This document shows positions 28,049-49,321 of a DNA stretch of 64,000 bases, piece by piece. Within the stretch, counting starts at the first letter, position 1; every line of letters starts with the position of its first letter. Below the pieces are notes generated by a model that was given only the letters and a program-made list of their open reading frames with translations, made no database searches and had not been told where the DNA came from. Origin of the DNA: a virus; the IMG/VR virus record IMGVR_UViG_3300031576_000025, positions 18,219 to 82,218 of that record. The stretch is one strand, 5' to 3'. A program made the translations under genes and the position numbers.

Positions 28049-28091
28049 TTTCGCCCCCCGGCCGGGCCTTGCCCGGCTTGCCTACACCTTC

Positions 28092-28120
28092 AGTATAGCC
28101 TGTTACTGGTAATTGTCAAG
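28092..28120 (-). promoter_or_regulatory. Leftward sigma70 promoter TTGACA-16-TATACT
   Basis: Exact reverse complement of 28474-28502. Confidence 0.85.
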
Positions 28121-28188
28121 ACCCAAAAAGGTCCTATGCCGTCCCCGACGGCCCCCGGGCCACGCGGCCCAGGGGCGGGGACCGGCGG

Positions 28189-28356
28189 CTACCCGCCCCC
28201 CCCTTCCTCCACTTCGGCCCCCGCTTCCAGGCGCGGCTTTTCGTCCGTCGTCGCCCGCATCAGCGCCGACTCAAGCAGCGCGGCGTCAATCTTCAGGTAC
28301 GCCGCCAGCGCAACCAGCACCGCCTTGCCTTCCGCTTCCAGCTTCATCTTGTCCAC
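28189..28356 (-). CDS. 55-aa microprotein MDKMKLEAEGKAVLVALAAYLKID... (absent from ORF track)
   Basis: AGGGGG RBS, leader hairpin and its own promoter. Confidence 0.6.
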   Translation of the reverse strand: MDKMKLEAEGKAVLVALAAYLKIDAALLESALMRATTDEKPRLEAGAEVEEGGGG

Positions 28357-28402
28357 TTTCCGACCCCCTGGCCCGACCTTGCCGGGCCTGCCCTACATGG
28401 AA

Positions 28403-28431
28403 AGTATAGACGGATTACTAGCCATTGTCAA
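28403..28431 (-). promoter_or_regulatory. Leftward sigma70 promoter TTGACA-17-TATACT
   Basis: Consensus hexamers; spacer contains GGCTAGTAA. Confidence 0.85.
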
Positions 28432-28473
28432 GACCCAGGCCGCCGGTCCATAGGACCTACGCAGAAATTGGGC

Positions 28474-28502
28474 CTTGACAATTACCAGTAACAGGCTATA
28501 CT
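28474..28502 (+). promoter_or_regulatory. Rightward early promoter TTGACA-16-TATACT
   Basis: Consensus hexamers; spacer contains TTACCAGTAA. Confidence 0.85.
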
Positions 28503-28553
28503 TCGGGTATGGAAGCGAACGCCGCGGGCAAGGCCAGCGGAAAGGGGGCGAAC

Positions 28554-29819
28554 ATGGACGACGCGAAGAAGCTGGAAACGCTGGGCGAGATGTCGCACAG
28601 CGCGTGGTCGGGCCGCGGCACGTTGCAGCAGTTGGTGGACGAGCTGAAGCGGCAGGCGGCCAGCAAGGTGGATTTCGTGGCCGACACGCGCAGCCTGCGC
28701 GTGGACGCCGTGGCCGCGGTCCCCGCGGTGACGGAGGGCAAGAAGGTTGTCACGGTCGGGAAGCCCGGCAGCCTGCGCTTGGCCCCCGCGGACCTGCGCA
28801 CGGGCGAATGGCTGCCGAAGGCGGGCCTGGGCATCCGGCCCAACGCCTTGGAGCAGCTGGGCCAGGCGCAGAACCCCGGAATCCCCGGCGGCTTCCTAAA
28901 GGACCTGGCGGGACTTCGCCCGGCCCGCGCCGCCGACCTCCTGAACGGGCTCATGGCCGACGGCCCCAGCCGCCGGTTCATCCGCTGCCTGGACGGCAGC
29001 GTGCGCGCCGCCATGTCCGACCGCTACCGCGTGCTGGACAGCCTGGACATCGCCTTTCCCACCCTGGAAGCGGCGCGTTCCGTGGGCGCGGAGGTGCTGG
29101 AAGCCAACCTGTCGGAAACCCACATGCGCCTGAAGCTCATCTGCCGCAACGTGTGGGACGCCGTAGAAATGCGCCGCCAGCAGGGCGGCAGCTGGTACGC
29201 GGGCGGCCTGGGGAACCAGGACTACCTGCGCCACGTGTCCGCCAGGTCCGAGGGCGACCTGCCCGGCGGGCCCGGCACGGTGTACCCCGTCGTCACGGTG
29301 TCCAACAGCGAAACCGGAAACGGCGGCTTCAACGTCCGCATCGGCATCATGATGGGCATTTGCTTCAACCTGGCCACCGTCGAGGACGTGGTGGCGCGGG
29401 TCCACCTGGGCGAACGCCTGGACACCGGCATCTTCAGCGCGCAGACCATGGGCCTGGAGTCCAAGGTCATCCTCGCCAAGGCCCGGGACGCGGTGGTGGC
29501 GGCCTTCAACAAGGACGCCTTCGGCCGCATCGTGGCCGCGGCCCGCAAGGCGCAGGGGGACGCGGTGCAGGCCCCCACGGCGGCGGTGCAGAACGTGGTC
29601 AAGGCGGCCGGGCTGTCCGACAACGCCAAGGACGCCATCCTGGAGCACTTCCTGCGGGATTACGACCAGTCCCGCTTCGGGCTCGCCCAGGCCGTGTCCC
29701 GCCACGCGCAGGACACGCAGGACCCGAACACCGCGGACACGCTGGAGTCCCTGGCCGGGGACCTGCTGCGCGGCGGCAACAAGTATGCGCACGCCGCGCT
29801 GAACGCGGCGGCCAAGTAG
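28554..29819 (+). CDS. DUF932-like protein
   Basis: R.FIR.LDG.VRA.MSDRY..LD, VSNSETG.G, C.N motifs; ATG 28554 after AGGGGG. Confidence 0.75.
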   Translation: MDDAKKLETLGEMSHSAWSGRGTLQQLVDELKRQAASKVDFVADTRSLRVDAVAAVPAVTEGKKVVTVGKPGSLRLAPADLRTGEWLPKAGLGIRPNALEQLGQAQNPGIPGGFLKDLAGLRPARAADLLNGLMADGPSRRFIRCLDGSVRAAMSDRYRVLDSLDIAFPTLEAARSVGAEVLEANLSETHMRLKLICRNVWDAVEMRRQQGGSWYAGGLGNQDYLRHVSARSEGDLPGGPGTVYPVVTVSNSETGNGGFNVRIGIMMGICFNLATVEDVVARVHLGERLDTGIFSAQTMGLESKVILAKARDAVVAAFNKDAFGRIVAAARKAQGDAVQAPTAAVQNVVKAAGLSDNAKDAILEHFLRDYDQSRFGLAQAVSRHAQDTQDPNTADTLESLAGDLLRGGNKYAHAALNAAAK

Positions 29820-29830
29820 CCGGGCTGGCG

Positions 29831-29856
29831 GCGGGGCCCCTAGAACGGGGCCCCGC
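29831..29856 (+). terminator. Perfect 10-bp hairpin after DUF932 (no U-tract)
   Basis: GCGGGGCCCC-tagaac-GGGGCCCCGC. Confidence 0.45.
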
Positions 29857-29919
29857 CTGCACAGCCGGACGCCTGCGACGGGGGGCGGGCGTCCAGCCGG
29901 GCAGGCCCAGGGGGACGAC

Positions 29920-30138
29920 ATGGCGCTCAAGGCGGGTGACGTGGTGCGCAGGGCGGCGCGGGCAGGGGACACCCTGGTGCCGTTGCTGGTGTACGGGCTG
30001 GTGGCGGACGACAGCGGCAGGCTGCGCGCGGAGTTGTTTATTCGCCTGCCGGGAGGCGCGCCCGGGTCCTGGGCCGGGTGCCTGTCGCTGCGCAGACTTC
30101 GGCCCTGGGACACCGCGAAGGACGGGCCGCTGGCATGA
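29920..30138 (+). CDS. Hypothetical protein
   Basis: RBS and ATGA coupling. Confidence 0.55.
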   Translation: MALKAGDVVRRAARAGDTLVPLLVYGLVADDSGRLRAELFIRLPGGAPGSWAGCLSLRRLRPWDTAKDGPLA

Positions 30139-30518
30139 AGCCGCGCACCAGGACATACGGGCCCGGGTGGGACGGGACCAGCAGAACCGAGCATTACGTC
30201 TGGCTGGACCGGGCCGGTCAGTCAACAACCTGGTCCGGCACGCGCTGGGCCATGATTCCTTTGCAGGTACGCCGCGCGCTGGTCCCGGTGCTGCCTATCC
30301 CTAATACGAACCACGGAAAGCGGCTTGTCAAGGTGGTGCTGACCGTGACCGAAGCGCGCGAGCTGCTGGGCGTTGCTGGCAATGGCTACATGGACGGGGA
30401 TTACTACCAGTTGAACAACGAAGGCCACCCGCCGACGGCAGAACAGAAGGCCGCGAACGAAGTATACAGCAGGGCGGAATCCAAGCTGCGCGCGGCCACC
30501 AACGGGACGGCACCATGA
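30135..30518 (+). CDS. Hypothetical protein
   Basis: ATGA-coupled at both ends. Confidence 0.55.
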   Translation: MKPRTRTYGPGWDGTSRTEHYVWLDRAGQSTTWSGTRWAMIPLQVRRALVPVLPIPNTNHGKRLVKVVLTVTEARELLGVAGNGYMDGDYYQLNNEGHPPTAEQKAANEVYSRAESKLRAATNGTAP

Positions 30519-30919
30519 GCGCAGCCACGGACGCGCTGGACCGCCTGTACAGCAAGCTGCCGCGGCTGGACTGCCAGGGCAAGTGTCAACAGTCCTGCGG
30601 CCCCATTGCCATGGGCCAGGCCGAACTCGCGCGGCTGACCAAGCGGCTGGGCTACGTGCCGCGGTGGCCGGGCGTGGTGGCGGCCGTGACGCTGGCGGTG
30701 CTGGGGGCGGAAAAGGCCCTGACCTGCCCACTGCTGGATAAGGGCACCGGGCGCTGCACCGTGTACGCCATCCGGCCCATGCTGTGCCGCCTATGGGGCC
30801 TGGTGCGCGCCATGGCGTGCCCATGGGGGTGCGTGCCTACGCGCTGGCTGACGGACGACGAGGCCACGGCGCTGCTGGGCGCGGCCAGGCGGGTGGTGCC
30901 GGACGGGGGCGGGGCGTGA
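30515..30919 (+). CDS. YkgJ-family (CxxCxxCC-like) Fe-S/Zn cluster protein
   Basis: C.GKC..SCG, CPLL....RC.VY..RP.LCR. Confidence 0.85.
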   Translation: MSAATDALDRLYSKLPRLDCQGKCQQSCGPIAMGQAELARLTKRLGYVPRWPGVVAAVTLAVLGAEKALTCPLLDKGTGRCTVYAIRPMLCRLWGLVRAMACPWGCVPTRWLTDDEATALLGAARRVVPDGGGA

Positions 30920-31049
30920 CCGCCAAGCCCGAGGTGTCCTGGCTGGCCAGGCTGGTGTGCTGGTGGCGCGGGTGCAGCCGCTACTTTATCGAGCAGCCGG
31001 ACCCTGACCACTGGTGGGTCAGGTGCAGGCGGTGTGGGCGGGTAAGCTG

Positions 31050-31247
31050 ATGGGGAAACGGCAGCGGCGGCGGCTGAGCGCGAACAGGCTGCGGCGCGGC
31101 CGGGAAGCCGTGCTGGCAGCCATGCGCGCGCCTGAACCACCGGCGGCGGTGAAGCCGGACTGTACGCTGTGCGGCAAGCCAATGGACAGGCGGGGTGAAC
31201 TTCCGTGGCACCGGCCGTGCGGGTTGGAAAACGGGGTGGAATTTTAG
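31050..31247 (+). CDS. Arg-rich Zn-finger microprotein
   Basis: MGKRQRRRLSANRLRR; CTLC..H.PC. Confidence 0.55.
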   Translation: MGKRQRRRLSANRLRRGREAVLAAMRAPEPPAAVKPDCTLCGKPMDRRGELPWHRPCGLENGVEF

Positions 31248-31255
31248 GGGGGCGC

Positions 31256-32134
31256 GTGGCAAAGGAACACTTCAAGGATTGGGACCCCAGCGACGGTTCG
31301 CAGGACCGTCTGGAAAAGGTGCTGGACGTGCTGGCCCAGTACGCGGGCATGGACCTGCGCATTACGCTGCGCCAGCTTTTCTACCAGCTGGTATCCAAAA
31401 ACTTCATCGCCAACAAGCAGCGCGAATACAAGAACCTTGGCGAGCTGCTGTCGCGGGCGCGGCTGGCCGGGTTGGTGGACTGGGGGGCCATCGAGGACCG
31501 CATCCGGCAGCCGGACAAGCACGCCGAATGGGCCGACATCCCCGACCTGGTGGAATCTGCCGTGTCGTCCTTCCGCCTGCCGCGCTGGTCTGACCAGGAA
31601 TGCTGCGTGGAACTGTGGTGCGAAAAGGACGCGCTGACCAGCGTGCTGGAACCTATCACGAACGCGCTGCACGTCACCTTGATGGTGAACCGCGGCTACA
31701 GCAGCCAATCGGCCATGTACGAAGCGGCGCAGCGGTGGGCGCGCTCCGCGGACGACGGCAAGAAAAACATCCTGCTGTACCTGGGGGACTTCGACCCGTC
31801 CGGGCAGGACATGGTGCGCGACGTGCGCGACCGTCTGGCCATGTTCGGGCAGGAAGTGGACGTGCGCAAGCTGGCGCTGAACCCCGACCAGGTGGCGCGT
31901 TACGGGCTGCCGCCCAATCCGGCCAAGCTGACGGACAGCCGCGCCGCAGGATTCGTTGCGAAGCACGGCGGCAGCAGCTACGAGGTGGACGCGCTGCCGC
32001 CGGATGTGCTGGCGCAACTGGTGCGCGGGGCAATCGAGGACACCATGGACATGAAGCTGTACGCCGCCTGGCGGGCCCAGGAAAAGGTGCTGAAGGCCAA
32101 GCTGGTGGCGGTGGCGAAGGCTACGAAGTGGTGA
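31256..32134 (+). CDS. Toprim-domain protein (TopoVI-A/Spo11-like, DUF2399-related)
   Basis: TLRQLFYQLV, ELWCEKDAL, RGYSS, LYLGDFDPSG, EVDAL. Confidence 0.8.
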   Translation: MAKEHFKDWDPSDGSQDRLEKVLDVLAQYAGMDLRITLRQLFYQLVSKNFIANKQREYKNLGELLSRARLAGLVDWGAIEDRIRQPDKHAEWADIPDLVESAVSSFRLPRWSDQECCVELWCEKDALTSVLEPITNALHVTLMVNRGYSSQSAMYEAAQRWARSADDGKKNILLYLGDFDPSGQDMVRDVRDRLAMFGQEVDVRKLALNPDQVARYGLPPNPAKLTDSRAAGFVAKHGGSSYEVDALPPDVLAQLVRGAIEDTMDMKLYAAWRAQEKVLKAKLVAVAKATKW

Positions 32135-32322
32135 CCGACGACGGCGGCGCGCAGCCGCCACGCCAGCGGCGGCACAGCTGGCGCTACGCTAGGGTGTGGG
32201 ACTCCCGCTATGGCTGCCACCGCTTGACGTGGCAGGCCACCTGCCGCGCGTGCGGACTGACCATGTGGCGCAAGCATTTGCAGGGCCGTGGGCCGGGCGA
32301 GCCATGCCCCGGGTGGGTCTAA
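32131..32322 (+). CDS. Cys/His microprotein
   Basis: GTGA-coupled; H.W..CRACG..CPG. Confidence 0.5.
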   Translation: MTDDGGAQPPRQRRHSWRYARVWDSRYGCHRLTWQATCRACGLTMWRKHLQGRGPGEPCPGWV

Positions 32323-32352
32323 AGACCCGGGCCGCATGGGTCCTTGTGGGCC

Positions 32353-32380
32353 TTGCGCTTTACTGGTAGAAGGCTAAACT
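32353..32380 (+). promoter_or_regulatory. Early-type promoter TTGCGC-16-TAAACT
   Basis: Spacer TTACTGGTA (operator in reverse orientation); CAAGG leader hairpin follows. Confidence 0.6.
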
Positions 32381-32421
32381 GTGGGTGTGTGGCGGGCAAG
32401 GTCCGCCGGGGGGAAGCTGGA

Positions 32422-32643
32422 ATGGACGCTATTGGCGCGGTGTTCGACGTGGTACGGAAGGACTGGCGCGCGTACTTCGGCGCGCCGGTGCGGTCCATGA
32501 CGCTGCGCGCGGCGGCTTGCGCACGGGAACTGCTGTGCCCCCGGTGCAAGGTGGCCATGTCCGGGCTGACGCACGCCGGGCTGCTGGGCGCGGAATGTCG
32601 CACCTGCCGCAGCGTGTTTATTCAGCCGGTTGGGACGGCCTGA
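32422..32643 (+). CDS. Zn-ribbon microprotein
   Basis: CPRC..CRTC. Confidence 0.6.
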   Translation: MDAIGAVFDVVRKDWRAYFGAPVRSMTLRAAACARELLCPRCKVAMSGLTHAGLLGAECRTCRSVFIQPVGTA

Positions 32644-32650
32644 CGGCGGC

Positions 32651-32680
32651 TTGACTTGGGCTAGTAACCTGCTGTACCAT
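32651..32680 (+). promoter_or_regulatory. Promoter TTGACT-18-TACCAT
   Basis: Spacer has GGCTAGTAA; upstream of the HTH gene. Confidence 0.6.
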
Positions 32681-32718
32681 GGGTGCAGCGGGACAACACA
32701 AAGGACGGAGGACTGGCG

Positions 32719-32952
32719 ATGGCAAAGACGGCGAAGCACGAGTACACAACGGCGCAGCGCAAGCGCGGGAAGGAATTTCTGGACTGGCTGAACGGCAAGG
32801 GCTGGACGCAGGATTCCTTCGCCCGCGACACCGGCATAAGCGTGGACACCATCCGCAAGTGGTGCGGCGGCACCGACCCGGACAACATGGCCCGCATCGT
32901 CCTGCGCAACCGCTGCCCCGACTGCCCGCTGCTGGTCCAGAAGGTCGCCTAG
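32719..32952 (+). CDS. Cro/XRE-like HTH regulator
   Basis: GGAGG RBS; GWTQDSFARDTGISVDTIRKW..G HTH. Confidence 0.8.
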   Translation: MAKTAKHEYTTAQRKRGKEFLDWLNGKGWTQDSFARDTGISVDTIRKWCGGTDPDNMARIVLRNRCPDCPLLVQKVA

Positions 32953-32995
32953 ACCAAGGAACCAGTGCCGCAGTCCAGCAGCGCCACCACAGGAC

Positions 32996-33038
32996 CGGCG
33001 CGCCCGCGTGACCATAAGCGGGCGCGTACCGTTTTTTT
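32996..33038 (+). terminator. Rho-independent terminator
   Basis: CGCGCCCGC/GCGGGCGCG stem followed by T7. Confidence 0.75.
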
Positions 33039-33071
33039 GCCACCCCTGACCAACCAAAGGAGAACCCGACA

Positions 33072-34034
33072 ATGGGCGAAGAACTAGAGACAGCGCCGGA
33101 ACAGCAATTGGAAACGGTGCCCACGGACAAGGCACCCATGACGTTCAACGAGGACCGCATCAACGCGCTGATTCACCTAGCCGAACGCAGCGAAGTGCTG
33201 GGCAAGGCGCTGGACACGCTGCGCGCGTTCGTGCTGAAGCGCGCGCTGCCCGGCGACTGGGTGAAGTTCGCGCAGGAAGGCGGGGACGCCTACCTCGAAA
33301 TGGGCAGCGCCGGGGCCGACCGTATCGCCGCCGTGCTGGGGATTTCCTTCACTGGCTGGTCCAGCGAAAAGGTGCTGGGCAGCGACGACTACGGGGCCAA
33401 GTTCGATTGGTGGTACCGCTGCAACGTCCACTTCCAGGGCCGCACCATCGAAGGCATCGAAGGCCGCTGCGGCAGCCGGGACAAGTTCTTTGGGTTCAGC
33501 CATGGGACCTGGAAAGACCTAAAGGACGTGCGCGAAACGGACATCCGCACGGCCGCCCGCCGCAACGCCATGAAGGAAGGCGTCAAGGTCATGCTGGGCA
33601 TTCGGCGTCTGCCCATGCAGGACGCCATCAAGATGGGCCTGCCCGCGGACGTAATCAAGGGCCACACCTTCGCCAACAAGGCCGACCACGGCGGCACGCA
33701 GGCCGCGGCTGCCGGGGCCGCGGCGGGGTCCGGCGGCGGCAGCGCGGGGACCATGGAAGCCACCGAAGTGGTGGTGGACGTGACGAACAAGACGGGCGGA
33801 ACGCCCACGAAGCCATGGACCAAGTTCTTCATCAGGACCATGGGCGGCACCGTCTACAACACGTTCGATAAGGACTTCGCGCAGGCGGCCAAGGACGTGA
33901 AGGGCACCGGCCAGAAAGTCCTTATCAGCTTCATCGTGAACCAGTACGGCAGCGAGGTCAAGTCGCTGAAGGCCGCGCCGGACAAGCCCGCGGGGGCCCC
34001 GGCCCAGGGCACGCTGCCGGGGACCGAAGCGTGA
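33072..34034 (+). CDS. Putative ssDNA-annealing protein with C-terminal OB-like domain
   Basis: AAGGAG RBS; paired with an exonuclease; A..NA.K.GV...LGI helix resembling Rad52/ERF-type proteins. Confidence 0.55.
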   Translation: MGEELETAPEQQLETVPTDKAPMTFNEDRINALIHLAERSEVLGKALDTLRAFVLKRALPGDWVKFAQEGGDAYLEMGSAGADRIAAVLGISFTGWSSEKVLGSDDYGAKFDWWYRCNVHFQGRTIEGIEGRCGSRDKFFGFSHGTWKDLKDVRETDIRTAARRNAMKEGVKVMLGIRRLPMQDAIKMGLPADVIKGHTFANKADHGGTQAAAAGAAAGSGGGSAGTMEATEVVVDVTNKTGGTPTKPWTKFFIRTMGGTVYNTFDKDFAQAAKDVKGTGQKVLISFIVNQYGSEVKSLKAAPDKPAGAPAQGTLPGTEA

Positions 34035-35065
34035 CCGACGCAGCCGCGCAGCCAGGCGCGGCAACAGAAGCCGACCCCGCCACCACGGCGCTTTCCGTGG
34101 TGGCGGCGTTGGCGGCTGAAATCGAAACCAAGCGCAACGCCATGCTGCTGGCGACAATCACCAATCGCCCCAAGCAGAACAGCTGGGCCAGCCAGGTGTC
34201 CGCCTGCAACCGCCAAAACGTCTACAGCATCCTGAACTGGGAGGACCGGAAGCTGCACGACATACGCCTAGCGGCGCGGTTCAAGGCTGGCAACGACCAG
34301 GAAAGGATTATCCTGCGCGAACTGAACGAACTGGGCTTCGACGTTGTGGAAGGGCAGGCCACGCTGCCCACCGACATGACGGCCGCCTACCGGGTGTCCG
34401 GCCGGATTGACGGGAAGCTGCGCTACATGGGGCACCGAATCCCTTTTGAAGTGAAGTCCTGCCACCCGCGGATTTTCGCCAAGCTGGAAAGAATGTCCAA
34501 CGCCGACGCGCTGGCGTTCATTTCCGCAGACCGCTACATATCCTCCCACCTTAAGCAGTTCAGCCTGTACCTGTTCGGGCACAACGAGGAAGCGGGGCTG
34601 CTGCTGTACACGGACTGCATGGGCCATTGGAAGCTGGTCACGGTCACGCTGAACTACGCGCTGGCCGAATCCGTGCTGGACCAGCTGGACCTGGTGAAGC
34701 GGTACGTGGAGGCCAAGGAATTGCCAGACCGGATTCCTTACGACGAGGACCTGTGCGGCGGGTGCAGCTTCCTGCATATTTGCCTGCCGGACGTGGTGCG
34801 CGCGGAAACGCAGCTGGTGGACGACCCGGCCACGGTGGTTGCGCTTGACCGCCGCGCGCAGCTTTCCGCGCCCGCCGACGAATACGAGGAACTGGACAAG
34901 GCGCTGAAGGAAAAATACCGCGGGACGACGCGGAAGATTTTGGGCGGGAAGTGGGTGGTGGAATCCAAGGAAGTGCTGGTGAAGGGCAAGCCGCAGTGGC
35001 GCACGACGTTCAAGGTTCTGGACCAGCAGGAAACGGCGGAAGCCGCGGACGCGCAGCAGGGATAG
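34031..35065 (+). CDS. Cas4-like PD-(D/E)XK exonuclease
   Basis: AS....C.R, SGRIDG, FEVKS, Q...Y, CGGCSF...C. Confidence 0.85.
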   Translation: MTDAAAQPGAATEADPATTALSVVAALAAEIETKRNAMLLATITNRPKQNSWASQVSACNRQNVYSILNWEDRKLHDIRLAARFKAGNDQERIILRELNELGFDVVEGQATLPTDMTAAYRVSGRIDGKLRYMGHRIPFEVKSCHPRIFAKLERMSNADALAFISADRYISSHLKQFSLYLFGHNEEAGLLLYTDCMGHWKLVTVTLNYALAESVLDQLDLVKRYVEAKELPDRIPYDEDLCGGCSFLHICLPDVVRAETQLVDDPATVVALDRRAQLSAPADEYEELDKALKEKYRGTTRKILGGKWVVESKEVLVKGKPQWRTTFKVLDQQETAEAADAQQG

Positions 35066-35155
35066 CCGCGGTCTTTCGGCGGCCTGGCCGCCAGTGGACC
35101 GCGGACGTGCGGTGGCAGCAAGGCTGCCGCCTTGGACGCAGCAACGGAGGAGTTC

Positions 35156-35887
35156 ATGTGGCAAGACAGAATAACCGTGGAAGTCGGGTACCCACGCCAC
35201 CCCAAAACAATCACCCTGATTCAACGTCTTGGAAACGGTGCCGACGCCATACCCGTCCGGCTTTGGTGCTGGGCGGCCGAGTTCAAACCACAGCATGGAA
35301 AGCTGGGGAACCTGGACATGGACCCCAGCGAGGTGGAATCGCTGGTGGATTGGTGGGGGGAACCGGGGGCGTGCTTCAACGCCATGCTGGGGCTGTTCAT
35401 TGACCGCAACGAGGACGGCTTCTACCTGCACGACTGGGGCGGACATCGGGGCCACGTCACGACCTACCACGAGCGCGCGAAGGTGGCGGCCAATACGCGC
35501 TGGGCGCGCCACAAAGCCATGAAGGCAGCCAAAGAAGAACGCGCCGCGGCCGGGCGCAAGGCTTCGCAGCCAGCGATAGACCTAGTGGACCGCCTGGTTG
35601 GGCTCATGCTGAAGAACGACCCCAATGCGCGCGTGCCTGGCAAACCGGCGGCATGGCAGCAGGATGCCGAAAAGCTGCTGACGACGGACGGCCGCGGCGC
35701 GAAGGAAGCAACCGCGGTTCTGGAATGGTGCCAGCGGTCAACCTTCTGGCGCAGCAATATCCTCAGCATGGGCAAGTTCCGCGCCAAGTATTCGCAGCTA
35801 TTGCTGCGGATGCAGGACGAGGGGAAGGAATCGGTAAATGGTCCCGTTGGGTCAGCAGCCCCGGTGGCGGGCAAGTATGCCAAGTGA
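35156..35887 (+). CDS. Replication initiator protein
   Basis: HPK...L, LHDW, C-terminal FW.SNILS..KFR.KY.QL; upstream of DnaC. Confidence 0.75.
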   Translation: MWQDRITVEVGYPRHPKTITLIQRLGNGADAIPVRLWCWAAEFKPQHGKLGNLDMDPSEVESLVDWWGEPGACFNAMLGLFIDRNEDGFYLHDWGGHRGHVTTYHERAKVAANTRWARHKAMKAAKEERAAAGRKASQPAIDLVDRLVGLMLKNDPNARVPGKPAAWQQDAEKLLTTDGRGAKEATAVLEWCQRSTFWRSNILSMGKFRAKYSQLLLRMQDEGKESVNGPVGSAAPVAGKYAK

Positions 35888-36608: not shown

Positions 36609-36805
36609 ATGCGGTTGCCAGCTGGATAAATCGGGACGGCAGCATGACCGTGCTGTGCATCGGCTGCGGGTTGACCGCCAAGGTTCTGAAACCAGTGCTT
36701 GACGCCATGCCGGACCAGGCCGCGCCGTTCGGGCCTGGGGAATTTGACCACGCTTGCAGGGCTGTGCTGCCAGGTTCCGGGCGGCCTGGGGGCAGCAATG
36801 GGTGA
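36605..36805 (+). CDS. Microprotein
   Basis: Overlap-coupled; CIGC..H.C. Confidence 0.5.
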   Translation: MNAVASWINRDGSMTVLCIGCGLTAKVLKPVLDAMPDQAAPFGPGEFDHACRAVLPGSGRPGGSNG

Positions 36806-40526: not shown

Positions 40527-40551
40527 GTCTACCGACCCAACGTCCTGGGCC

Positions 40552-40580: not shown

Positions 40581-40616
40581 CCTAGTACAGCCGCGTCAAG
40601 GACCGGCGGGGGAAAA

Positions 40617-42270
40617 ATGGACAAGACGACCAGGCAGGGGGGACTGAAGGTGGTGCGGACGACCGCCAGAGGTCCCGTGTACGAGCTTTTCAAGGTGGTG
40701 TCCGACTTCGGCAGCCACGGCCTGCGCGGGCACAAGGACGCCGGGACCTTCTACCCGGCTGGCGATATGTTCGCCTTCCACACGCAGGACGCCGCCGCGC
40801 AGCGCATGGCTGACCTGCGCGCCAACAAGGACGGCGGCCTGGACACCGGCCTGCTGCCCGCCTTGGCCAGCGCCAGCGGCGCGGCCCTTGCCGACAGCCT
40901 CCGCGTCATCAGCATATTCGACGGGCCCGGCCTGGGTGGCTTCTAGTGGCCGCCGCGGGCTTCGACGAGCCGGGCTTCCTGACCAGCGGACGGGCCTACC
41001 TTAACGGCCTGCTGGCGACCCACGCGCGGCCATTGCGGCCGGGCGAGGGCCTGGGCGGGCCGTGCTGCCAGCTGGCTGCCGCCGAGTACCTGCTGCCTGA
41101 CGGCACCAAGGCGTGCCGGGCCTGCGCCAAGCTGCGGCTGCCTGCGCTGCTGGGGGTGGCGACATGACGCGCAAGCGCGGGGCGTTGGCCGCGCAGCTGG
41201 CGGCGGCTTCCGTGGCCAAGCTGGACCGTCGGGGCCTGGTGTCCCGGCTGGCGTCCAGCCCTTACCGGGTGTGGGCGGCCTACTACGAGCTGCACTTCGC
41301 GGACAAAACCCTGTACCTGCACGTGCTGGTGGGCGCGCGGACCCACCGGGCCGCGTGCATGGCCTTCCTGTCCCAGCCGGTGCGCAAGCTGGGGCCTGTG
41401 ACGGTCCAGCCCAAGGGGGTGCTTCCCAAGCCCGTGGCGCACCGGGACACCCGGGCCATGCTCATGGAGGTGGGCGGTGGGCTAGACCTGGGCACGGACG
41501 TGCTGCGCAAGCTGGCGGCGGACTTTGACCCGGACCATACGGACTTCGGTGGGCCGGTGGACGGCGCGCGGACCAACGGCCCGCGCAGGGGGGCGTGAAC
41601 ATGGCGAGCACTGGCGAGGTAAAGGAAAAGGCGGCGCAGGGGACGGTGGACATGCGGTACTACAAGGCGGACGTGCGGGCGGCCATCGCCAAGCGTGGGG
41701 CCTTCACGGACACCTTCAGCATGGGCGGCCTGCGCTGGACGGTGAAGGCCGAGCTGGCGGGGTCCTGAAATGGCAACGACACGGGCGGCGAAGGTGGCGG
41801 CGCAGTACCAGGGCGGGCTTTCGGACTGGGTGGCCAATGACCCGGGATTCATAGCCTACGCGGCGCGGGGGGCGGCCCCGGTCATGGGCTACGTGGGGCA
41901 CCGCTGCCGCCGGAACTGGCTGGACGCCATCGTGGAGGAAGAGCTGCGACGGGCGGGCTGCACGGTGCCCGAAATCGTCGCGTGGCTGACCAGCACCGAC
42001 GGGCGGCACACGGGCGACAGCCTGGAGGACTGCAAGGCCGCGGAAAGGATAGAAACGCGCCGCCTGGTGCGCCGCGGCTTCGGCAACATGAAGGACCGCC
42101 TTCAGGCGTGGGCCCACCCCAGCCACGGCGGCATGTGGTCGGACACCGTGCGCCTGCTGCACCAGCTGTTCCCATGGAAGTACGACACCACGGGGCGGGT
42201 CCGGCCAGAATACGGGGGCACCGGAACGCCCCTGAAGGCCGCCGCGGACTGGGGCATCCGCCATGCGTGA
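40617..42270 (+). CDS. Five coupled hypothetical genes (40617-40946, 40946-41167, 41164-41598, 41601-41768, 41770-42270)
   Basis: Contiguous ORFs with overlapping or adjacent stop/start codons downstream of a promoter. Confidence 0.6.
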
Positions 42271-42976
42271 ATCCATAAACGCCTGGGAAGAACGAACCTT
42301 CCCGAAGCACTACGCGCTGCTGGTGCCGCCCCACCTGCGGGTGGCGCTGACGCACGCCTTGGGGCGGGCCCTGGGGGTGCCCGTCTACAACGTGGAACTG
42401 ACCCTGCGCCGCAACGGCTGCGGCAAGTGCTTCCCGCGCGCGCGCCATATCCTGCTGCCCATCCCCAAATGCACCGTGTCCGTGGGCGTGATAACGCACG
42501 AACTGGCCCACCAGTACGCCTACGAGCACGGTTACGACGGGCACCACGGGCAGCCCTGGCGGTCGGCCATGTGCAGGCTGGCGGCCTTCACCAAGCCGGA
42601 CGTGCCGGGCAACCCGCTGGAAAAGGCGTGGGCGGAAGCCACCGCGCAGGTCCAGCAGACCGCCGTTGCGCAGGTGGCCAGGGCGCAGAAGGTGTCAGCG
42701 CGGTTGCAGCGGGAAGCCGAACGCGCCGCGGCGACGAAGGCCGCGCGGTCCACGGCCGAAAACAGATTGGCCCAGGTCCGCGCGCGGATAAAGCGCCTGG
42801 AAACCAAGGTGCGCGGCCTGCAAACCAGGCTGAAGTCGGCGCGGCGCAGCGAAGCTGCCTTGGCGCGCGTCGTGGCTGCGCGGGTGCTGCGGGCCACGGC
42901 CCCAAGCGCGTCCGAAATCGCAGCGGCAGAAGCGCGCCTGGCGTCCGACACGGGAACGTACGGCGGGGGGACATAA
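42263..42976 (+). CDS. SprT-like Zn metalloprotease with coiled-coil tail
   Basis: HELAH....GHHG..W. Confidence 0.75.
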   Translation: MRESINAWEERTFPKHYALLVPPHLRVALTHALGRALGVPVYNVELTLRRNGCGKCFPRARHILLPIPKCTVSVGVITHELAHQYAYEHGYDGHHGQPWRSAMCRLAAFTKPDVPGNPLEKAWAEATAQVQQTAVAQVARAQKVSARLQREAERAAATKAARSTAENRLAQVRARIKRLETKVRGLQTRLKSARRSEAALARVVAARVLRATAPSASEIAAAEARLASDTGTYGGGT

Positions 42977-43781
42977 TGGAAACCATGCGGCGCGTCAGGA
43001 AATTGCTGCGGCCGGAAACCGGGGGCGGTGTGCTGCTGTACCTGGAATGCGGGCACACGCTGGCTTCCAACACGCACGGGGCCATGCCCGCGCTGGAAAT
43101 CTTCGCGCTGTCGTTGTCCTGCGCGACCTGCGGAAGCCAAGACGCCAGCTGGGAACGGGGGCGCTTGGACGGGGTGGCGCTGGCGCGCAGCCACGCGGAC
43201 GTGCGCACGCGCGAAGCGGCCAAGGAAATCATCCGCGGCGCGCACAAAACCCTGTTCCCCAAGGAAGGGCTGGGGGTGACCAGGAAGCGGTGGACCAAGG
43301 GCATGTACTTCGGCTACTGGCGCACCATGGTCAACGAAAACGGGGTGGCGGACGTGCCGTACCAGGGGGACCAGGACTTTGTGCCGGTGGGCGCGGACGG
43401 CGTGCGGCGCGCGCGGGCCGCGGGCCAGGGGCCGCTGGCATGAGCTGGCCGCGTGAGCCGTGGCGCATGGGCTACAGGGACGGGTCCGGCAAGAATGTCC
43501 TGACGGCCAAGGTGGGCCGCAAGCGCACTGGCCTGCTGGTGGCGTGGTCAGGAAAGGGCTGCGGCTGCTGCGCGGGCGACACGAAGCCGATAGAACAGGC
43601 TGCGCTGGAGCGCGCTGCTTCATGCGTCAACGCCTGTGCTGGTCTGGCGGACCCGTGCGCCACCATGAACCAGGCCCGGCACGCGCTGCTGCTGACCAGG
43701 GCACGTGTCAAGCTGGCCTTGGACCCGGTGCTGGCAGAGGCCGTGTACAAGGCGTTGGGTGTGCTGGGGGTGAGCCCGTGA
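42976..43781 (+). CDS. Two hypothetical genes (42976-43443, 43440-43781)
   Basis: Coupled ORFs; LECGH..C..C finger in the first. Confidence 0.55.
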
Positions 43782-44470
43782 AGCTGTACCACGGGACGGC
43801 CGCGGCGAACCTGGGGGCTGTTCGCGCCCGCGGCCTGGTGCCCCGTGGACGGTTCAACAAGCGCAGCAATTGGGAACACACCGCGCGCAGCCGCGCCGGG
43901 CACGTCTACCTGACCACGGCCTATCCGCTTTACTTTGCCCTGTGCGCCAGCGGTGACGAAAACGCGCTGGTGGTGGAAGTGGACACCGACAGGCTGGACC
44001 CGCGGCGGATGTACCCGGACGAGGATTTCTTGGCGCACGTTCTGGCGCAGCAGGCTGTGGCCAGCAAGGCGCTGCACCGGCCGGTCCTAAATAAGCTGAC
44101 GCAGACGGTCAACCTGGAAGCCAACCGCGACCTGTGGGGAAAATCGCTTGAGCTGCTGGGGACGTGCAGCTACTTCGGCCATGTGCCGCCAGCGGCAATC
44201 ACGCGCTACGCCACCGTGGACGTAATGGCGCGCCCCAGCCTGGCCATGCTGTGCGTGGACCCCACTATCACGCTGGCAAACTACCGCTTCTGTGGCTGGA
44301 AGTACCGGCAGCTGGTGGCCTGGATTTTTGGGGACGCGCCGGACCTGCCGGGCGCGGTCCCGCCGGAACACATGGCGCAGCTTGGCGAACTGCCGGGCAT
44401 GGCCGAAGCCGCTGCGGCCCTGGCTGCGGAATCCGTGGACCGCCGCGGCGTGGCGGTGCTTCTGCCGTGA
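43778..44470 (+). CDS. ADP-ribosyltransferase-fold protein
   Basis: KLYHGT......GL.P, VYLT, VVEVD, G.VPP.AI. Confidence 0.7.
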   Translation: MKLYHGTAAANLGAVRARGLVPRGRFNKRSNWEHTARSRAGHVYLTTAYPLYFALCASGDENALVVEVDTDRLDPRRMYPDEDFLAHVLAQQAVASKALHRPVLNKLTQTVNLEANRDLWGKSLELLGTCSYFGHVPPAAITRYATVDVMARPSLAMLCVDPTITLANYRFCGWKYRQLVAWIFGDAPDLPGAVPPEHMAQLGELPGMAEAAAALAAESVDRRGVAVLLP

Positions 44471-44505
44471 TAATTTAGGCCCGGCAAGACCGGGCGGGGG
44501 GACGT

Positions 44506-44886
44506 ATGGACAACGTAAAGACGGGCCAGCAAACGCTGGGCAGGGCGCTGGCCAAGGTGCGCGCCGCCGGGCTTAAGGCTGGCCTTGACGCCGACAAGCT
44601 GAACGCTGCGCTGCTGGCCGCCACCAACAGCAGGGCCCTGCCCACGCTGAAGCGCCTGCCTTCTGAAGTGGCCATGCGCGCCTGCGCGCTGCTGCCCAAT
44701 GCCGGTGACGCGGCCATCCTGGTGCGCCTGAAGAACGGCGGGGTCCGGGTCTACACCAAGGCCAGCCACCGCACCCTGGTGGAATCCGGGCGGCGCGCGG
44801 GCAAGGCGCTCGGCGGCAATCGCAACGCGGCCGGGAAGGGCCCCACGGAAACGGCTGGGCATATCCCCGCCAGTGGCGCGGCATGA
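44506..44886 (+). CDS. Hypothetical protein
   Basis: Leader hairpin and GGGGGG RBS. Confidence 0.6.
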   Translation: MDNVKTGQQTLGRALAKVRAAGLKAGLDADKLNAALLAATNSRALPTLKRLPSEVAMRACALLPNAGDAAILVRLKNGGVRVYTKASHRTLVESGRRAGKALGGNRNAAGKGPTETAGHIPASGAA

Positions 44887-46589
44887 ACATTAACCTGCAC
44901 CCTGCGACAATCAAGCTGCTGAAGGGCAAGGGCATCAAGCAAATCGAAAGGCACCTGGATTTCCACAACGACGACGTGCTGGAATTCGACCTGGACAAGC
45001 TGACGGCCAAGGAACTTTCGGCGGTGAAGGACGCCCTTGGAAAGACGGCGGCCGGGCCGGACAGCACCGAACAGCGCAGCGCCGTCCGGTCCATTGGAAT
45101 CATCGCCGCCGTGGCCGACGCCGACAACGCGCCGGGGGACAAGAAGGTTGCCAAGCTGGAACTGCTGGCGACCCTGCTGCGGTCCTATATCAGGACAGCC
45201 AATGGCTACCGGGTCTACAAGAAGGCCGACGACGACGACGCTTTCTTTTTGCCGCATATCGTCACCAAGGTGACCTACCACCCCCCGGAACGCAGCCGCA
45301 GCGGCGACACGTCGCCAGCCCACGTGTTAATGCAATTGGCCCACTACAGAAATGGGTCCGTCTGCAAAGACACCCACGCCTTCTATTCCCACCACACGCG
45401 CCAAAAAACGGTTGCGCAGATTTTCCACGCCGCCGGTTACGTCCTGGCTAACGACGACCTGGACAAGACCTATGAAAACGACCTGAAGCTGTTTCGGGAA
45501 ACCGAGCACCTGGTCGGTGTCCAGTTCTTGGCGGCCGGTATCGCCAGCACAGGGCGGCACCGCTGGGACCAGTTCAGTCTGCTGGTAGACGGCCAGCGGT
45601 CGCGCGCAGTGGTTGAAGAACGCACCGACGACAACGGGAAAAAGACCAAGGAAGCGGCCGTGGTGGACATGGCGTGGTGGAACAACGCCAAGGGCGTGCG
45701 CGACGAGGACGACCTGGACGACGACCTGGACGACGCGGGGACGACTGACGACGACGGGGTGCCGCCGCTGCACCCCTACGTCTACTGCTTCCTGCTTGCC
45801 AGGCACGAAACCGCCGACGTTCACGTGCGCAACATGAACCGCTACGTGTACGACAAGAAAATGGGCGACAAGCTGGTGCTGCCGCAGGAAACCAAGCAGC
45901 TTGTAGAACTGCTGCTGGAGGACAGCGCCGCAAAATTTCAGGACATAATCAGAGGCAAGGCCGGTGGTTCAATAATCCTTTGCACCGGGGCCCCGGGCAC
46001 CGGCAAGACGCTGACGGCGGAAGTCTACGCCGAAGTAATGGAACGGCCGTTGTACGTGGTCCAATCGTCGCAGCTTGGGACCGAACCCGAAGGGCTGGAA
46101 AAGCACCTGCGCGACGTGCTGGACCGCGCGACCAGGTGGGGGGCTATCCTGCTGATTGACGAAGCGGACGTTTACATTCACGAACGCGGCGCGGACGTGA
46201 ACCAAAACGCAATCGTCGGGGTTTTCCTTCGCGTGCTGGAATACTACAAGGGCATCCTGTTCCTAACCACCAACCGCGAATGCATCGTGGACGACGCCAT
46301 AGAATCGCGCTGCACCGCGCAGGTGGCCTACGGCGTGCCGTCCGTGCCCGACCAGGTGCGGATATGGAAGCTGCTGCGCGACCTATCGAAGGTGGCGGTG
46401 TCGGACGCCACGATAGAACAGGTGGCGAAGGCGAACCCGCGGCTGTCGGGGCGCGACGTGAAGAACCTGCTGAAGCTGGCGCAGCTGGTGTCCCTGCGCC
46501 GTGGCAAGCCGGTGGACGCCAAGACGATAGAACACGTAATGAAGTTCAAGCCGACACGGACGGCCGGTGGGCCGGGGGGCCAGGAATGA
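44883..46589 (+). CDS. AAA+ ATPase
   Basis: GAPGTGKTLTAE, LLIDEADVY, FLRVLEYY.GILFLTTNR, D.AI.SR, SGRDVKN. Confidence 0.92.
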   Translation: MNINLHPATIKLLKGKGIKQIERHLDFHNDDVLEFDLDKLTAKELSAVKDALGKTAAGPDSTEQRSAVRSIGIIAAVADADNAPGDKKVAKLELLATLLRSYIRTANGYRVYKKADDDDAFFLPHIVTKVTYHPPERSRSGDTSPAHVLMQLAHYRNGSVCKDTHAFYSHHTRQKTVAQIFHAAGYVLANDDLDKTYENDLKLFRETEHLVGVQFLAAGIASTGRHRWDQFSLLVDGQRSRAVVEERTDDNGKKTKEAAVVDMAWWNNAKGVRDEDDLDDDLDDAGTTDDDGVPPLHPYVYCFLLARHETADVHVRNMNRYVYDKKMGDKLVLPQETKQLVELLLEDSAAKFQDIIRGKAGGSIILCTGAPGTGKTLTAEVYAEVMERPLYVVQSSQLGTEPEGLEKHLRDVLDRATRWGAILLIDEADVYIHERGADVNQNAIVGVFLRVLEYYKGILFLTTNRECIVDDAIESRCTAQVAYGVPSVPDQVRIWKLLRDLSKVAVSDATIEQVAKANPRLSGRDVKNLLKLAQLVSLRRGKPVDAKTIEHVMKFKPTRTAGGPGGQE

Positions 46590-49227
46590 AACTGCGCGCG
46601 GTCATAGAAATTCCGTTGCTGCCGAACGTGTGGCAACCAAAGGGCAGCAGCCGGGACCTGAAACAGGACCGGCGCGAGCTTGAGGGCAAGCTGCCAGTTG
46701 GCGTGCTGGTCAAGTCGGTGCAGCACGTGACCGACAAGACCGACATGCGCGCAGCCTTCAAGCGGCTGCTGTCGTGGCACACCGAAAGCACGCCGCTGCC
46801 GTTTTTGCCAAAGCACCGGCGCGCGTCCGGGGCCATGGCCGGTGACGAAAAGGCCCCGTTCGTGTCCGAAACATTCCTGTACCCGCTGCTGGGCAAGGAC
46901 GACGCGCGCACGCTGCTGTACAAGCTGCGTGAAGTCATGCGGGTGGCCGGGGTGGACATGGACGACCTGGAGCGCGAGGTGGTGGCGGAACAGCGGGTGG
47001 CACTGGAAGCGGCGGCCAAGCTGTCGGCCGTCCAAGAAGGGCGGCGCAAGTTCTGGCACCAGTACGCGAAGGGCAAGGGCTGGGACGCGGACGAACTGAC
47101 CAGCGCACAATCGCGGGAAATCAGGGTGGCGCGCCGCGCCGCGGGTATCCCGTGACGGTGGGCGCGCTGGTGGCTGCGGCCAAAGCCGCGGTGGACCAGT
47201 ACGCGATGGTGGGCCTGACCGGCCGCCCGGCCTTCAACGTAAATCTGTACCGGGCGTGCAAGGGCAGACGCGCGCGGATAGCGCCCGGCCTGGTCGGCAC
47301 CGTCCTATCGTGGGGCGACGGCAGCAAGGCCGTGCCCACGCTGGTGTCCATGGACGCCAAGGCCGTGCTGTCCTGGCACGGCCGCCTGGAAAAGACCGCG
47401 GGCCTGCGGCGGGCGGCTGGGCAGCACGTGTGGGACAAGGTGGGCGACGGCACGCACGAGTGCCGGACGTGCGGCGCTGAAGCAGCGGGCTACTTTCCAG
47501 AGGACACGGTGCCGGGGCCATGCCCCGGTCCACAGGGGGACAGATGAAAAACGAGCCAGGCAAAACCTATCTCTGCCCGTGCTGCTGGGCGGCGCACAAG
47601 GCGGGCGGCTGGTACATGAGCTCGGACTACGTGCAGGTGCCGGACGTGGCGGACTGTACGCTGCACCCGGACCTGTCCAGCTGGCGCGTGGTGCGGACCC
47701 TGAAAAGCATCCGCCACTGGTCCATGCAGCCGGGCGAGTACCGGCACCCAAATTTCCAAGGGGTGCGGCTGGTGCTGGAAGGCGGCCACGTCCACCGGCG
47801 GACGGCCGAGGCTATTCTGTTCGATTACGAAAAGCCCTACCTGGACCTGCTGGTGGCCGAAGGCTACCTGGACGCGCACGACGGCACGCCGCGCACCTTG
47901 ACGGTGACGGAAAAGGGCGAGCTGCGGGTCCATGCTGCGCTACAGGAAGCCATGGAAAAGGAGCAGGCGAAGCTGGCAGCCAAGCGGGCAGGGGGCGCAG
48001 CGTGATGGCCTTCATGCCGCTGCGGTGCTGGGCCCTGCTGGTGCTGGTGGCCCTGGTCACGTCAAAGGCCATGAACGACCAGCCGAACAGGGCCAAGTGC
48101 TTTGCCTCCGCCGTCCTTGGGTTTTACGGCCTAGGGTTCCCAGCCCTTCTGTTCGTATTCGTGGACATGGGCTTGCTGCCGTGAAGCTGCACCGCCGCCG
48201 CTGCACGACCTGTGGCCAGCACCAGCTGCGCGTCCTGCACGCGCGGCTATGCGACAAGCGCATCATGCGGACGCGGCCCACGCGGCTGGGGGCCGTCCTG
48301 ACCTGGGGCCCGTGCCGCGGCAAGCTCATGTCCCTGCCCGCGCTGCACAAGGGGGACCTGTGAAACGGGGCACGCCGCCGGAATGGCACCAGTTCAACAG
48401 GGCGCTTGGCAACGGCCAGGAACGCCCGCCAATCAACAAGGCCGTGCTGGTCTACGTCGCCAGCATGCAGCCAGGGCTTCCAGAAGCCATAGCCGTGGGC
48501 TACCGCAAGGACGCGGCCGGGGACGCGGGGTACCCGTATTTCGTGGTGCCTGGACACGGCGGCGAAGTCATGGCGTGGTGCGACTGCCTGCCGGTTAATG
48601 ATATTCCACAGCTTTGGGCTGGGGCCAGAAAGATTGCTGTGCAAGGGGGAACGTAATGGCGAAATTCAGCGTGGTGGTTGAAGTTTGTGTGAGGTTCCAG
48701 CGCACCCTGGTGGTGCAGGCCAAGGACGCGCAGGCCGCCTGCGGACGTGCCGTGTTCGCGGCCATGAAGCTGGGCCCGCACGAACGCCGGGGTGTGGTGC
48801 TGGCCCCGGGCTGGTGCGGGTTCACCCCGAATGGGAATGACTACATGGTGGTAGACGCGCAGGCCGCCGACAACGACACGCCAGTGACGCTGCGGGTCAA
48901 GCGGTGACCCCGGCGCAGCTTGCCGTTGCGGAATCGGCCTGCCAGGTCCACCGGCCTCCGGTGGCGGACTGCGTGGCGTGCGCGCTGGCCGCTGCGCTGC
49001 GCGCCCAGGCCGGGCTGGCCGCGCAGCTGGCGAATGAGCTGCGGGCGCACGTAAAACTGGGCCCGTACCACATTTGCGACCTTGGCCCAGCCAGGCCGCC
49101 GGTGCGTAGTGGGCAGTTCAATCCCGTCCCCATAACCTACATCATCAATTGCCCTGGGTGTGCGCGGCACGCAAAGGACACCAAGGCTATGGCGGCCTGG
49201 GACGAATCAAGGCCGCTGGCTGGGTAG
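46586..49227 (+). CDS. Eight coupled small genes (46586-47155, 47152-47547, 47544-48005, 48005-48184, 48181-48363, 48360-48656 DUF551-like, 48656-48907, 48904-49227)
   Basis: Chain of ATGA/GTGA/TAATG overlaps; several CxxC motifs; W..P...VLV..V.AW..LP in 48360. Confidence 0.6.
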
Positions 49228-49252
49228 GCCAAATGGCCCACATGCCTGGGTC

Positions 49253-49281
49253 TTGCAAGCGGCTAGTAAAACGCTTATACT
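49253..49281 (+). promoter_or_regulatory. Early promoter TTGCAA-17-TATACT
   Basis: Spacer GGCTAGTAA; CAAGG hairpin follows. Confidence 0.75.
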
Positions 49282-49321
49282 CCAGATATCGCTGGGGCAA
49301 GGCCCCGGCCTGGGGGCGGGA

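Follow-up and report, generated by a model that had tools for sequence, protein, structure and literature searches.

CAAGR-loop hairpins in the early 5' leaders of a phage genome: a likely cis-acting leader RNA

What do eight short hairpins with a common loop and different stems do in front of the early genes of a phage? The question is raised by a 64,000-nucleotide stretch of viral DNA, bases 18219-82218 of one 82,218-bp contig (IMG/VR record IMGVR_UViG_3300031576_000025). This whole stretch is called the window, and positions follow its numbering unless genome positions are named. The original prediction placed eight hairpins with the loop CAAG(G/A) in early 5' leaders and proposed that they act in cis as RNA, with the boxB hairpin of phage lambda as a possible model. 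All eight are present at the coordinates and on the strands assigned to them. Their anatomy and statistics fit a conserved cis-acting element with a sequence-specific loop, and a cis-acting leader RNA is likely, whereas the comparison with boxB did not stand up to the feasible tests, and antitermination of the boxB kind is unlikely. The hairpins are given below with their scores in a covariance model built from all eight and scanned over the 82-kb genome (the full model) and, for some, with the score obtained when the copy was held out.

28061-28077, minus strand: hairpin 1, 6-bp stem, loop CAAGG; 27.2 bits in the full model.
28370-28388, minus strand: hairpin 2, 7-bp stem with a G.U closing pair, loop CAAGG; 27.4 bits, 23.4 bits held out.
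28522-28540, plus strand: hairpin 3, seven stem positions with one internal G.A mismatch, loop CAAGG; 25.1 bits.
32391-32407, plus strand: hairpin 4, 6-7 bp, loop CAAGG; 25.3 bits, 20.7 bits held out.
35111-35131, plus strand: hairpin 5, a borderline member, 8-bp stem, loop CAAGG, no promoter; 24.0 bits as a training sequence.
40590-40607, plus strand: hairpin 6, 4+2 bp with one bulged C, loop CAAGG; 18.7 bits.
44479-44495, plus strand: hairpin 7, intercistronic, 6-bp stem, loop CAAGA, no promoter; 25.3 bits, 21.5 bits held out.
49291-49309, plus strand: hairpin 8, 7-bp stem, loop CAAGG; 24.6 bits, 20.0 bits held out.

Anchored on the loop, the eight copies align without gaps in a 21-nucleotide (nt) frame. 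Standard pairs occupy 87.5% of the 56 cells of the 7-bp helix, against 59.4 +/- 5.4% when the 3' arms are shuffled (0 of 500 shuffles reach 87.5%), and sliding the 3' arm by 1-3 columns as a control leaves 25-50% paired. Double-sided changes occur in all seven stem pairs. All stem columns vary, and invariance is confined to the C, A, A and G of the loop, so that the claim of compensating stems around a CAAG(G/A) loop is borne out; the fifth loop base is G in seven copies and A at 44479. The promoters at 28092-28119 and 28475-28502 are identical over 28 nt, yet the stems of their hairpins differ, and the common loop is therefore not simply the result of recent copying.

The inner stem and loop together are near-constant, reading G-CAAGG-Y in 7/8 copies, a feature that could also belong to DNA, with a protein binding the duplex core GGCAAGGYC or with the hairpin forming in single-stranded DNA. 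The other strand of this core resembles the GGGYCTTG that precedes and overlaps the -35 box of the promoters described below. The outer stem positions, however, vary and yet stay complementary, which a duplex DNA binder does not require, and all copies have the same orientation relative to the downstream gene. Scans of 39 open reading frames (ORFs) of the window (30 against Pfam, 19 against PHROGs) revealed neither a virion RNA polymerase nor any other protein that uses DNA hairpins. We give a DNA-level site very little credence.

RNAfold predicts the hairpin in all eight leaders, with local folds of -9 to -20 kcal/mol. The seven CAAGG copies pair the C of the loop with its G, so that the loop shrinks to an AAG triloop, while CAAGA at 44479 stays a pentaloop. 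The G-run that follows the stem as Shine-Dalgarno (SD) sequence and the start codon are mostly unpaired in these folds; since the stem leaves both unmasked, the structure alone should not repress. A variant with a CAGG loop, reported near 29900, did not survive closer inspection: it folds with only 3+2 pairs and a bulge, and it is not among the 117 model matches listed at E <= 10.

The family also stands out when structure is disregarded. The pattern CAAGR-N5-10-GGGGG-N3-10-ATG has eight matches on the two strands, against 0.31 expected from shuffles, and six of them are hairpins of the family; the matches at 24958 and 61036 have no stem. Two members lie outside the pattern, 28370 by its GTG start and 35111 by its GGAGG-type SD. 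When loops are counted by their stems, eight CAAGR loops in the window (both strands) have at least six contiguous pairs, six of them in the family and two inside coding sequences (CDSs; 5875-5893, plus strand, and 2652-2670, minus strand), and the control loops CAAGY with at least six pairs number four. Equal frequency of such hairpins inside CDSs or on the antisense strand had been named beforehand as evidence against a family, and they are not equally frequent there.

In the full model seven members score 24.0-27.4 bits, and the best non-member of the 82-kb genome, an antisense CAGGG-loop hairpin inside a 1660-aa (amino acid) ORF, reaches 19.3 bits; the model found no further copy in this genome. 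Three of the four copies left out of a four-copy model rank 5, 6 and 8 genome-wide, and a model of the six promoter-linked copies has 44479 as its best new match, at 21.5 bits. The copy at 40590 was missed by the four-copy model and is placed in the family by its context. The membership of 35111 is borderline, based on its loop, its 8-bp stem and its intergenic sense position. The family has seven firm members and one borderline member. No family of Rfam 15 matches the hairpins; the sole family match in the window is a tRNA-Asn, and at E <= 5 the region 27900-49500 has two weak matches, neither of them at a hairpin. A hairpin-plus-G-run layout with another loop occurs at 47512-47528 (plus strand), where CCGGGG-CCATG-CCCCGG stands 6 nt before the GGGGG SD of the gene at 47544, within the end of the upstream ORF; the models match its reverse strand at 18.7-19.6 bits.

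Six of the hairpins follow a promoter of a single sigma70-like family, of which the copies are these.

28475-28502, plus strand: reference copy, TGGGYC-TTGACA-N4-CYAGTAA-N5/6-TATACT, before hairpin 3.
28092-28119, minus strand: family promoter before hairpin 1.
28403-28431, minus strand: family promoter before hairpin 2.
32353-32380, plus strand: family promoter before hairpin 4, degenerate (TTGCGC ... TAAACT).
40552-40580, plus strand: family promoter before hairpin 6.
49253-49281, plus strand: family promoter before hairpin 8.
32651-32680, plus strand: family promoter without hairpin.
Genome 2352-2379, outside the window: family promoter without hairpin.

As claimed, the six stems begin some 10-20 nt past the promoter (9, 9, 10, 14, 14 and 19 nt past the -10 hexamer), seven of the eight hairpins adjoin a G-rich ribosome-binding site (RBS), ending 0-3 nt before a GGGGG(G) run that itself lies 4-9 nt before the start codon, and one hairpin, 35111, precedes the replication initiator (ATG 35156). 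All eight are intergenic and in the sense orientation for the next gene. Promoter and hairpin are separable in both directions. The hairpins at 35111 and 44479 have no promoter. Conversely, the promoter at 32651-32680 leads into an open A-rich leader with GGAGGA, and the one at genome 2352-2379 (-10 TATAAT) is followed after 7 nt by an ATG with neither hairpin nor SD, so that genome 2352-2608 resembles a leaderless message that encodes a hydrophobic ~73-aa protein. Because the gap to the SD is fixed (0-3 nt, 7/8), the gap to the -10 varies and promoter and hairpin can be separated, the RBS is the constant partner of the hairpin.

The G-run itself is the ordinary Shine-Dalgarno sequence of this phage: GGGGG-N4-9-ATG was found 54 times against 25 expected, mostly at gene starts, and GGAG-N5-10-ATG 9 times against 31 expected, and many gene starts have a G-run without a hairpin. 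The hairpin is an addition to a subset of normal initiation regions, those of the first cistron after each early promoter. As separate observations, GGAGG/CCTCC is about three-fold under-represented on both strands of the whole window (48 occurrences, 33 plus and 15 minus, against 148.7 +/- 11 expected), and two relatives use GGAGG-type SDs where this phage uses GGGGG. The scarcity of GGAGG may reflect restriction-site avoidance that has reshaped the ribosome-binding sites.

The same geometry could pause transcription. A stable nascent hairpin whose 3' end lies 0-3 nt from the SD and 12-20 nt from the start codon might halt the polymerase ~10-12 nt downstream, over the stretch from SD to start, so that the first ribosome couples with it and shields early transcripts from Rho. 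Hairpin-dependent leader pauses are known in the his and trp leaders. Pause hairpins, however, need no conserved loop, and the G-run makes a strong RNA:DNA hybrid, which may affect pausing; we place little credence in a pause signal. A self-terminating hairpin (attenuator) was set aside, as a G-run rather than a U-run follows the stem. Repeats of the REP type were set aside since no single sequence is copied among the stems, and CsrA sites because GGA occurs in only one of the eight loops.

Individually, the hairpins stand as follows. Hairpin 1 begins 14 nt past its -10 and has 1 nt to GGGGGG (28054-28059); its ATG at 28048 opens a 168-aa ORF, the first of a leftward operon in which the integrase comes next. 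Hairpin 2, also 14 nt past its -10, has 1 nt to GGGGG and precedes the GTG start at 28356 of a 55-aa ORF. Hairpin 3 lies 19 nt past the -10 of the reference promoter and 3 nt before GGGGG (28544-28548), with ATG 28554 of a 421-aa protein that belongs to phrog_1362. Hairpin 4, 10 nt past the TAAACT box, adjoins GGGGGG (32408-32413) and leads to ATG 32422 of a 73-aa zinc-ribbon ORF. The hairpin at 35111 has a strong compound hairpin (~35066-35105) upstream and 14 nt to GGAGGAG, before the DnaD/O-like replication initiator. Hairpin 6, 9 nt past its -10, adjoins GGGGG (40608-40612; ATG 40617, 109-aa ORF), and hairpin 7 adjoins GGGGGG (44496-44501; ATG 44506, a 126-aa ORF followed by an AAA ATPase). 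Lastly, hairpin 8, 9 nt past its -10 and 2 nt before GGGGG (49312-49316), precedes ATG 49322 of a 132-aa ORF with a lipobox-like LSGC. Five of the eight genes, those at 28356 (minus strand), 28554, 32422, 40617 and 44506, start with (A/G)TGGAC, that is, with Met-Asp.

Could the hairpins be nut sites, at which a phage protein binds the nascent RNA and makes polymerase resist termination across the early operons? Six early transcripts do have, close to the promoter, a hairpin that keeps its 5-nt loop while its stem varies, and strong U-less GC hairpins after some genes (~29833-29854, 35066-35105) could terminate transcription in a GC-rich host. The boxB of lambda, however, has a purine-rich pentaloop that starts with G and adopts a GNRA-like fold, with boxA a few nt 5' of it. 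The loop here starts with C, and its predicted C-G pair leaves an AAG triloop. No boxA-like motif lies near any copy (a loose pattern matches the window 10 times where 15.5 are expected, and never within a leader), and the leader alignment contains no common box 5' of the stem except a T-purine step in the region of the transcription start. Terminator-like sites stand at chance level: scoring for canonical intrinsic sites, outside which Rho-dependent and U-less terminators fall, gives 24 terminator-like sites against 18.4 expected and 21 against 20.0 expected, almost all on the minus (non-coding) strand. Promoters recur every 3-9 kb, so that long read-through is not obviously needed, and the 44479 copy is promoter-less and lies between cistrons. 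To our knowledge, nut sites are not tied to the SD in this tight way (0-3 nt). Proteins like N are short and diverge fast, and the scanned ORFs included no recognisable member of an N-like, Q-like or other known antiterminator family. We strongly doubt that these hairpins are boxB-like sites.

The two GC hairpins after genes deserve description in their own right. Neither has a U-tail. The one at ~29833-29854, after the 421-aa gene, reads GGGGCCCC-TAGAAC-GGGGCCCC; the 101-nt region around the compound hairpin at 35066-35105 folds at -55.5 kcal/mol, with z = -3.7. Both may be U-less terminators or stabilisers of RNA 3' ends.

Where the leaders begin bears on the two readings that we consider next. 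In all six promoter-linked leaders the sixth base after the -10 hexamer is T and the seventh a purine, where a start site is expected, and a transcription start site (TSS) inferred at this step gives 5' overhangs of 3, 3, 3, 7, 7 and 12 nt before the stem and leaders of ~30-50 nt. Based on the above data, we tentatively favour, at somewhat less than even chances, a transcribed 5'-leader hairpin whose stem caps and insulates a short leader and whose loop is read by a trans factor that controls translation start or decay. The hairpins would form the body of very short 5' leaders before the first cistron of early operons, with transcription starting at the T-purine step 6-7 nt past the -10 and the stem lying 3-12 nt from the 5' end. 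The GC-rich stem would cap this end against 5'-end-dependent decay and would keep the G-run SD from pairing with upstream RNA. If selection acts on pairing in the stems and on sequence in the loop, something should read the loop: the loop and its G-Y closing pair would then be the site recognised by a trans factor, either an RNA or a protein, the latter from the early genes of the phage or from the host. Bound at the upstream border of the RBS, this factor could set initiation, decay or both for all first cistrons together. At the promoter-less sites the module may serve a cistron within a longer transcript; at 44479 the AU-rich stretch on its 5' side might first be cleaved.

Both halves of this mechanism have precedents. 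5' secondary structure stabilises bacterial mRNA, as RppH and RNase E need single-stranded 5' ends, according to the part of the source available to us (PMC3997798). The RegA protein of phage T4 competes with ribosomes at ~30 translation initiation regions, as the accessible portion of a second paper describes (PMC3014915).

A simpler explanation keeps the cap and drops the reader: the hairpin would be a passive 5' cap or insulator, its loop unread, and the shared CAAGG would come from one duplicated cassette or from a folding preference. The stems inferred at 3-12 nt from the 5' end, the known stabilising effect of 5' structure (within the available part of PMC3997798) and the open SD in the folds all suit it. 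The promoter/stem-loop/SD design also recalls the PeSL (promoter-early stem-loop) cassettes of T4-type phages, for which no loop reader is needed in so far as the accessible text of PMC2839356 goes. Against it, the loop columns are invariant in 8/8 copies while all stem columns vary, and neutral loops should drift at least equally; in addition, the hairpin with the CAAGA loop does not close to a triloop in its fold. A C(AAG)G loop is not known to us to be especially stable. Since it does not account for the invariant loop, we consider a passive cap unlikely on balance.

Is the element found in other phages, in which the loop-read hairpin could be compared site by site? Searching 28000-35900 with blastn against 50,697 phage records gave no match, and tblastn with the protein after hairpin 3 and the capsid protein gave only matches below 60% identity; the best homologue in a search of 5.8 billion proteins has 60% identity. 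Homologues of the gene after hairpin 3 (45-59% identity) come from IMG/VR contigs and from metagenome-assembled genomes of Nitrospirota, Manganitrophaceae and Planctomycetota. The set of relatives comprised IMG/VR loci around homologues of three early proteins (7 loci, the best 80 of 149 relatives, and 2 loci; 34-58% identity), with four GTDB genome loci added, and leaders were read in 3/7 of the IMG/VR loci (L025-L027) and 2/4 of the genome loci (L116, L117). In the nearest IMG/VR relative (L025, 58% protein identity) a CCGGG-CCTTA-CCCGG hairpin at 9932-9985 stands 17 nt before the GGGGG SD of the homologous gene, in a similar place with a different loop; this is one case only.

Wider scans gave the same picture. 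The full model was run on 1,515,279 bases of GC-rich phage and prophage DNA around distant homologues, one part of it with default filters, which can lose weak matches; the best score was 21.7 bits and no locus had clustered matches. The promoter pattern occurs at 24 IMG/VR loci, none of which (0/24) has a CAAGR...GGGG leader, and the promoter-plus-loop pattern occurs at four loci in JGI metagenomes, all AT-rich chance matches, two of them with CAAGG within the SD. A literature search turned up no relevant account of the motif; CAAGG repeats do occur in phage LUZ24 (PMC10914365) but are unrelated. As far as the searched collections show, the element is private to this genome. The only public run listed with this DNA is a cave metagenome, a possible source of the phage; no RNA run is listed with it. 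Contigs of that sample span 28000-47999 with no listed difference at the seven hairpins there; they are neither independent evidence nor a test of variation.

Several points weigh against the loop-read leader hairpin. The copies were picked by eye for pairing, so that covariation among them is partly circular, and signals independent of pairing were therefore examined. By model alone, 40590 and 35111 do no better than background, and 35111 when held out scores 16.4 bits, below two background matches. The element is not conserved in relatives: the leaders read at the homologues are unrelated, two with GGAGG-type SDs, and with no relative carrying the element there is no orthologous covariation. 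In three leaders 7-12 nt are predicted to precede the stem, which is long for a structure that only caps the 5' end. The loop is the one feature that a passive hairpin would leave unexplained, and no candidate reader of the loop was identified among the 39 window ORFs scanned.

For the reader that the favoured mechanism calls for, the only domain found with a proposed link to RNA is an ASCH domain at 38943-39356. In a protein atlas the 73-aa ORF had only generic zinc-ribbon neighbours, and the 126-aa ORF yielded no usable lead. An antisense RNA partner would contain RCCTTGC, which occurs 59 times against 36 expected, mostly as coding GC-AAG-G on the sense strand; none of these lies in a conspicuous sense-strand loop, and no complement of the loop was seen near start codons.

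The favoured hairpin would not act alone. The spacer of the family promoters holds a dyad, TTAC-NN-GTAA (28482-28491 in the reference copy), an operator-like palindrome that is probably the operator of a phage repressor; no helix-turn-helix repressor gene was recognised among the ORFs scanned. The hairpins would then constitute a post-transcriptional regulon parallel to this DNA operator. One step further, the CAAGG hairpins could be the RNA operators of a phage-private regulon, in which a single phage-encoded or hijacked host factor reads the loop and switches, for the first cistrons of every immediate-early operon at once, translation or decay, a proposal that we find somewhat unlikely. Our literature search found no description of such a two-layer cassette, DNA dyad plus RNA hairpin, for temperate phages. 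Further upstream, 15-25 nt before the -35 boxes, small palindromes with varying arms are seen at 40526-40537, 49227-49238, 28445-28457 and ~32318-32331 (GGTC-N4-GACC, GGCCA-AA-TGGCC, GGTCC-ATA-GGACC and GGGTCT-AA-AGACCC), two of which overlap the TAG stop of the upstream ORF; they may be 3'-end hairpins or regulator sites.

How new is such an element? The CAAGG-loop motif is new, and the type of signal, a phage-private signal at early gene starts, is already known. A close parallel to six of the eight hairpins is the PeSL of T4-type phages, in which, as far as the available part of the paper describes them, a strong sigma70-like early promoter and a GC-rich stem-loop are combined, in repeated intergenic units, with the SD and start of the next, often orphan, early gene (PMC2839356). 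According to the same portion of that source, their stem-loops lie between or over the promoter boxes, upstream, or just before the TSS and terminate or attenuate upstream transcription, and no conserved loop is described there. The hairpins here, in contrast, lie after the inferred TSS (9-19 nt past the -10 in six copies), adjoin the SD, have a fixed loop and are followed by a G-run, and they belong to a temperate, siphovirus-like phage in a GC-rich host context rather than to a T4-type phage.

SAS/ESAS of Cluster K mycobacteriophages resemble the hairpins in being a private repeat in one orientation before a subset of non-structural genes, a few nt from the start; about half of the SAS have an inverted repeat just upstream, and a link with translation initiation is suspected, on the evidence of the section of the paper at hand (PMC3203893). 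The SAS, as that section defines it, is a 13-nt conserved asymmetric sequence that includes the SD and lies 3-7 nt before the start, and the ESAS arms have a 17-nt consensus and a variable spacer (PMC3203893). Here, by contrast, the arms vary freely, a 5-nt loop is conserved, and the SD is the ordinary G-run of the genome.

With the nut boxB of lambda and its N protein the hairpins share the short promoter-proximal RNA hairpin with specificity in a 5-nt loop rather than in the stem, and they differ in loop type, boxA, position relative to the gene, copy number and placement. RegA sites are unstructured sequences over the start codon and not hairpins 5' of the SD. The likeness is that one phage protein is able to repress numerous early mRNAs where their translation begins, as the accessible part of PMC3014915 indicates. 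Stabiliser stem-loops of the ompA and papA type are similarly placed near the mRNA 5' end, where they act against RppH and RNase E (PMC3997798, in its available portion). Unlike the CAAGG hairpins, such stabilisers have no shared loop.

The remaining genes of the window place the element in its phage. Beside many orphan ORFs, the window encodes a major head protein, a minor tail protein, the DnaD/O-like replication initiator, an IstB-like ATPase, a Cas4-like exonuclease, a DNA methylase and the following integrase.

26485-27405, minus strand: tyrosine integrase.

The genome, with a GC content of ~66%, is that of an uncultured temperate tailed phage, siphovirus-like, in a GC-rich host context.

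Early control in phages is mostly understood as a matter of promoters and repressors; here it would include an RNA signal with a constant loop and drifting stems. Should the hairpin prove to be no more than a passive cap, the leaders are of ordinary design. If a reader of the loop exists, it would form a new RNA-protein recognition pair with the hairpin and give a temperate phage of a GC-rich uncultured host a compact, coordinated control of translation or mRNA stability. The cassette of promoter, operator, 17-21-nt hairpin and SD is small, and it might serve as an expression part.

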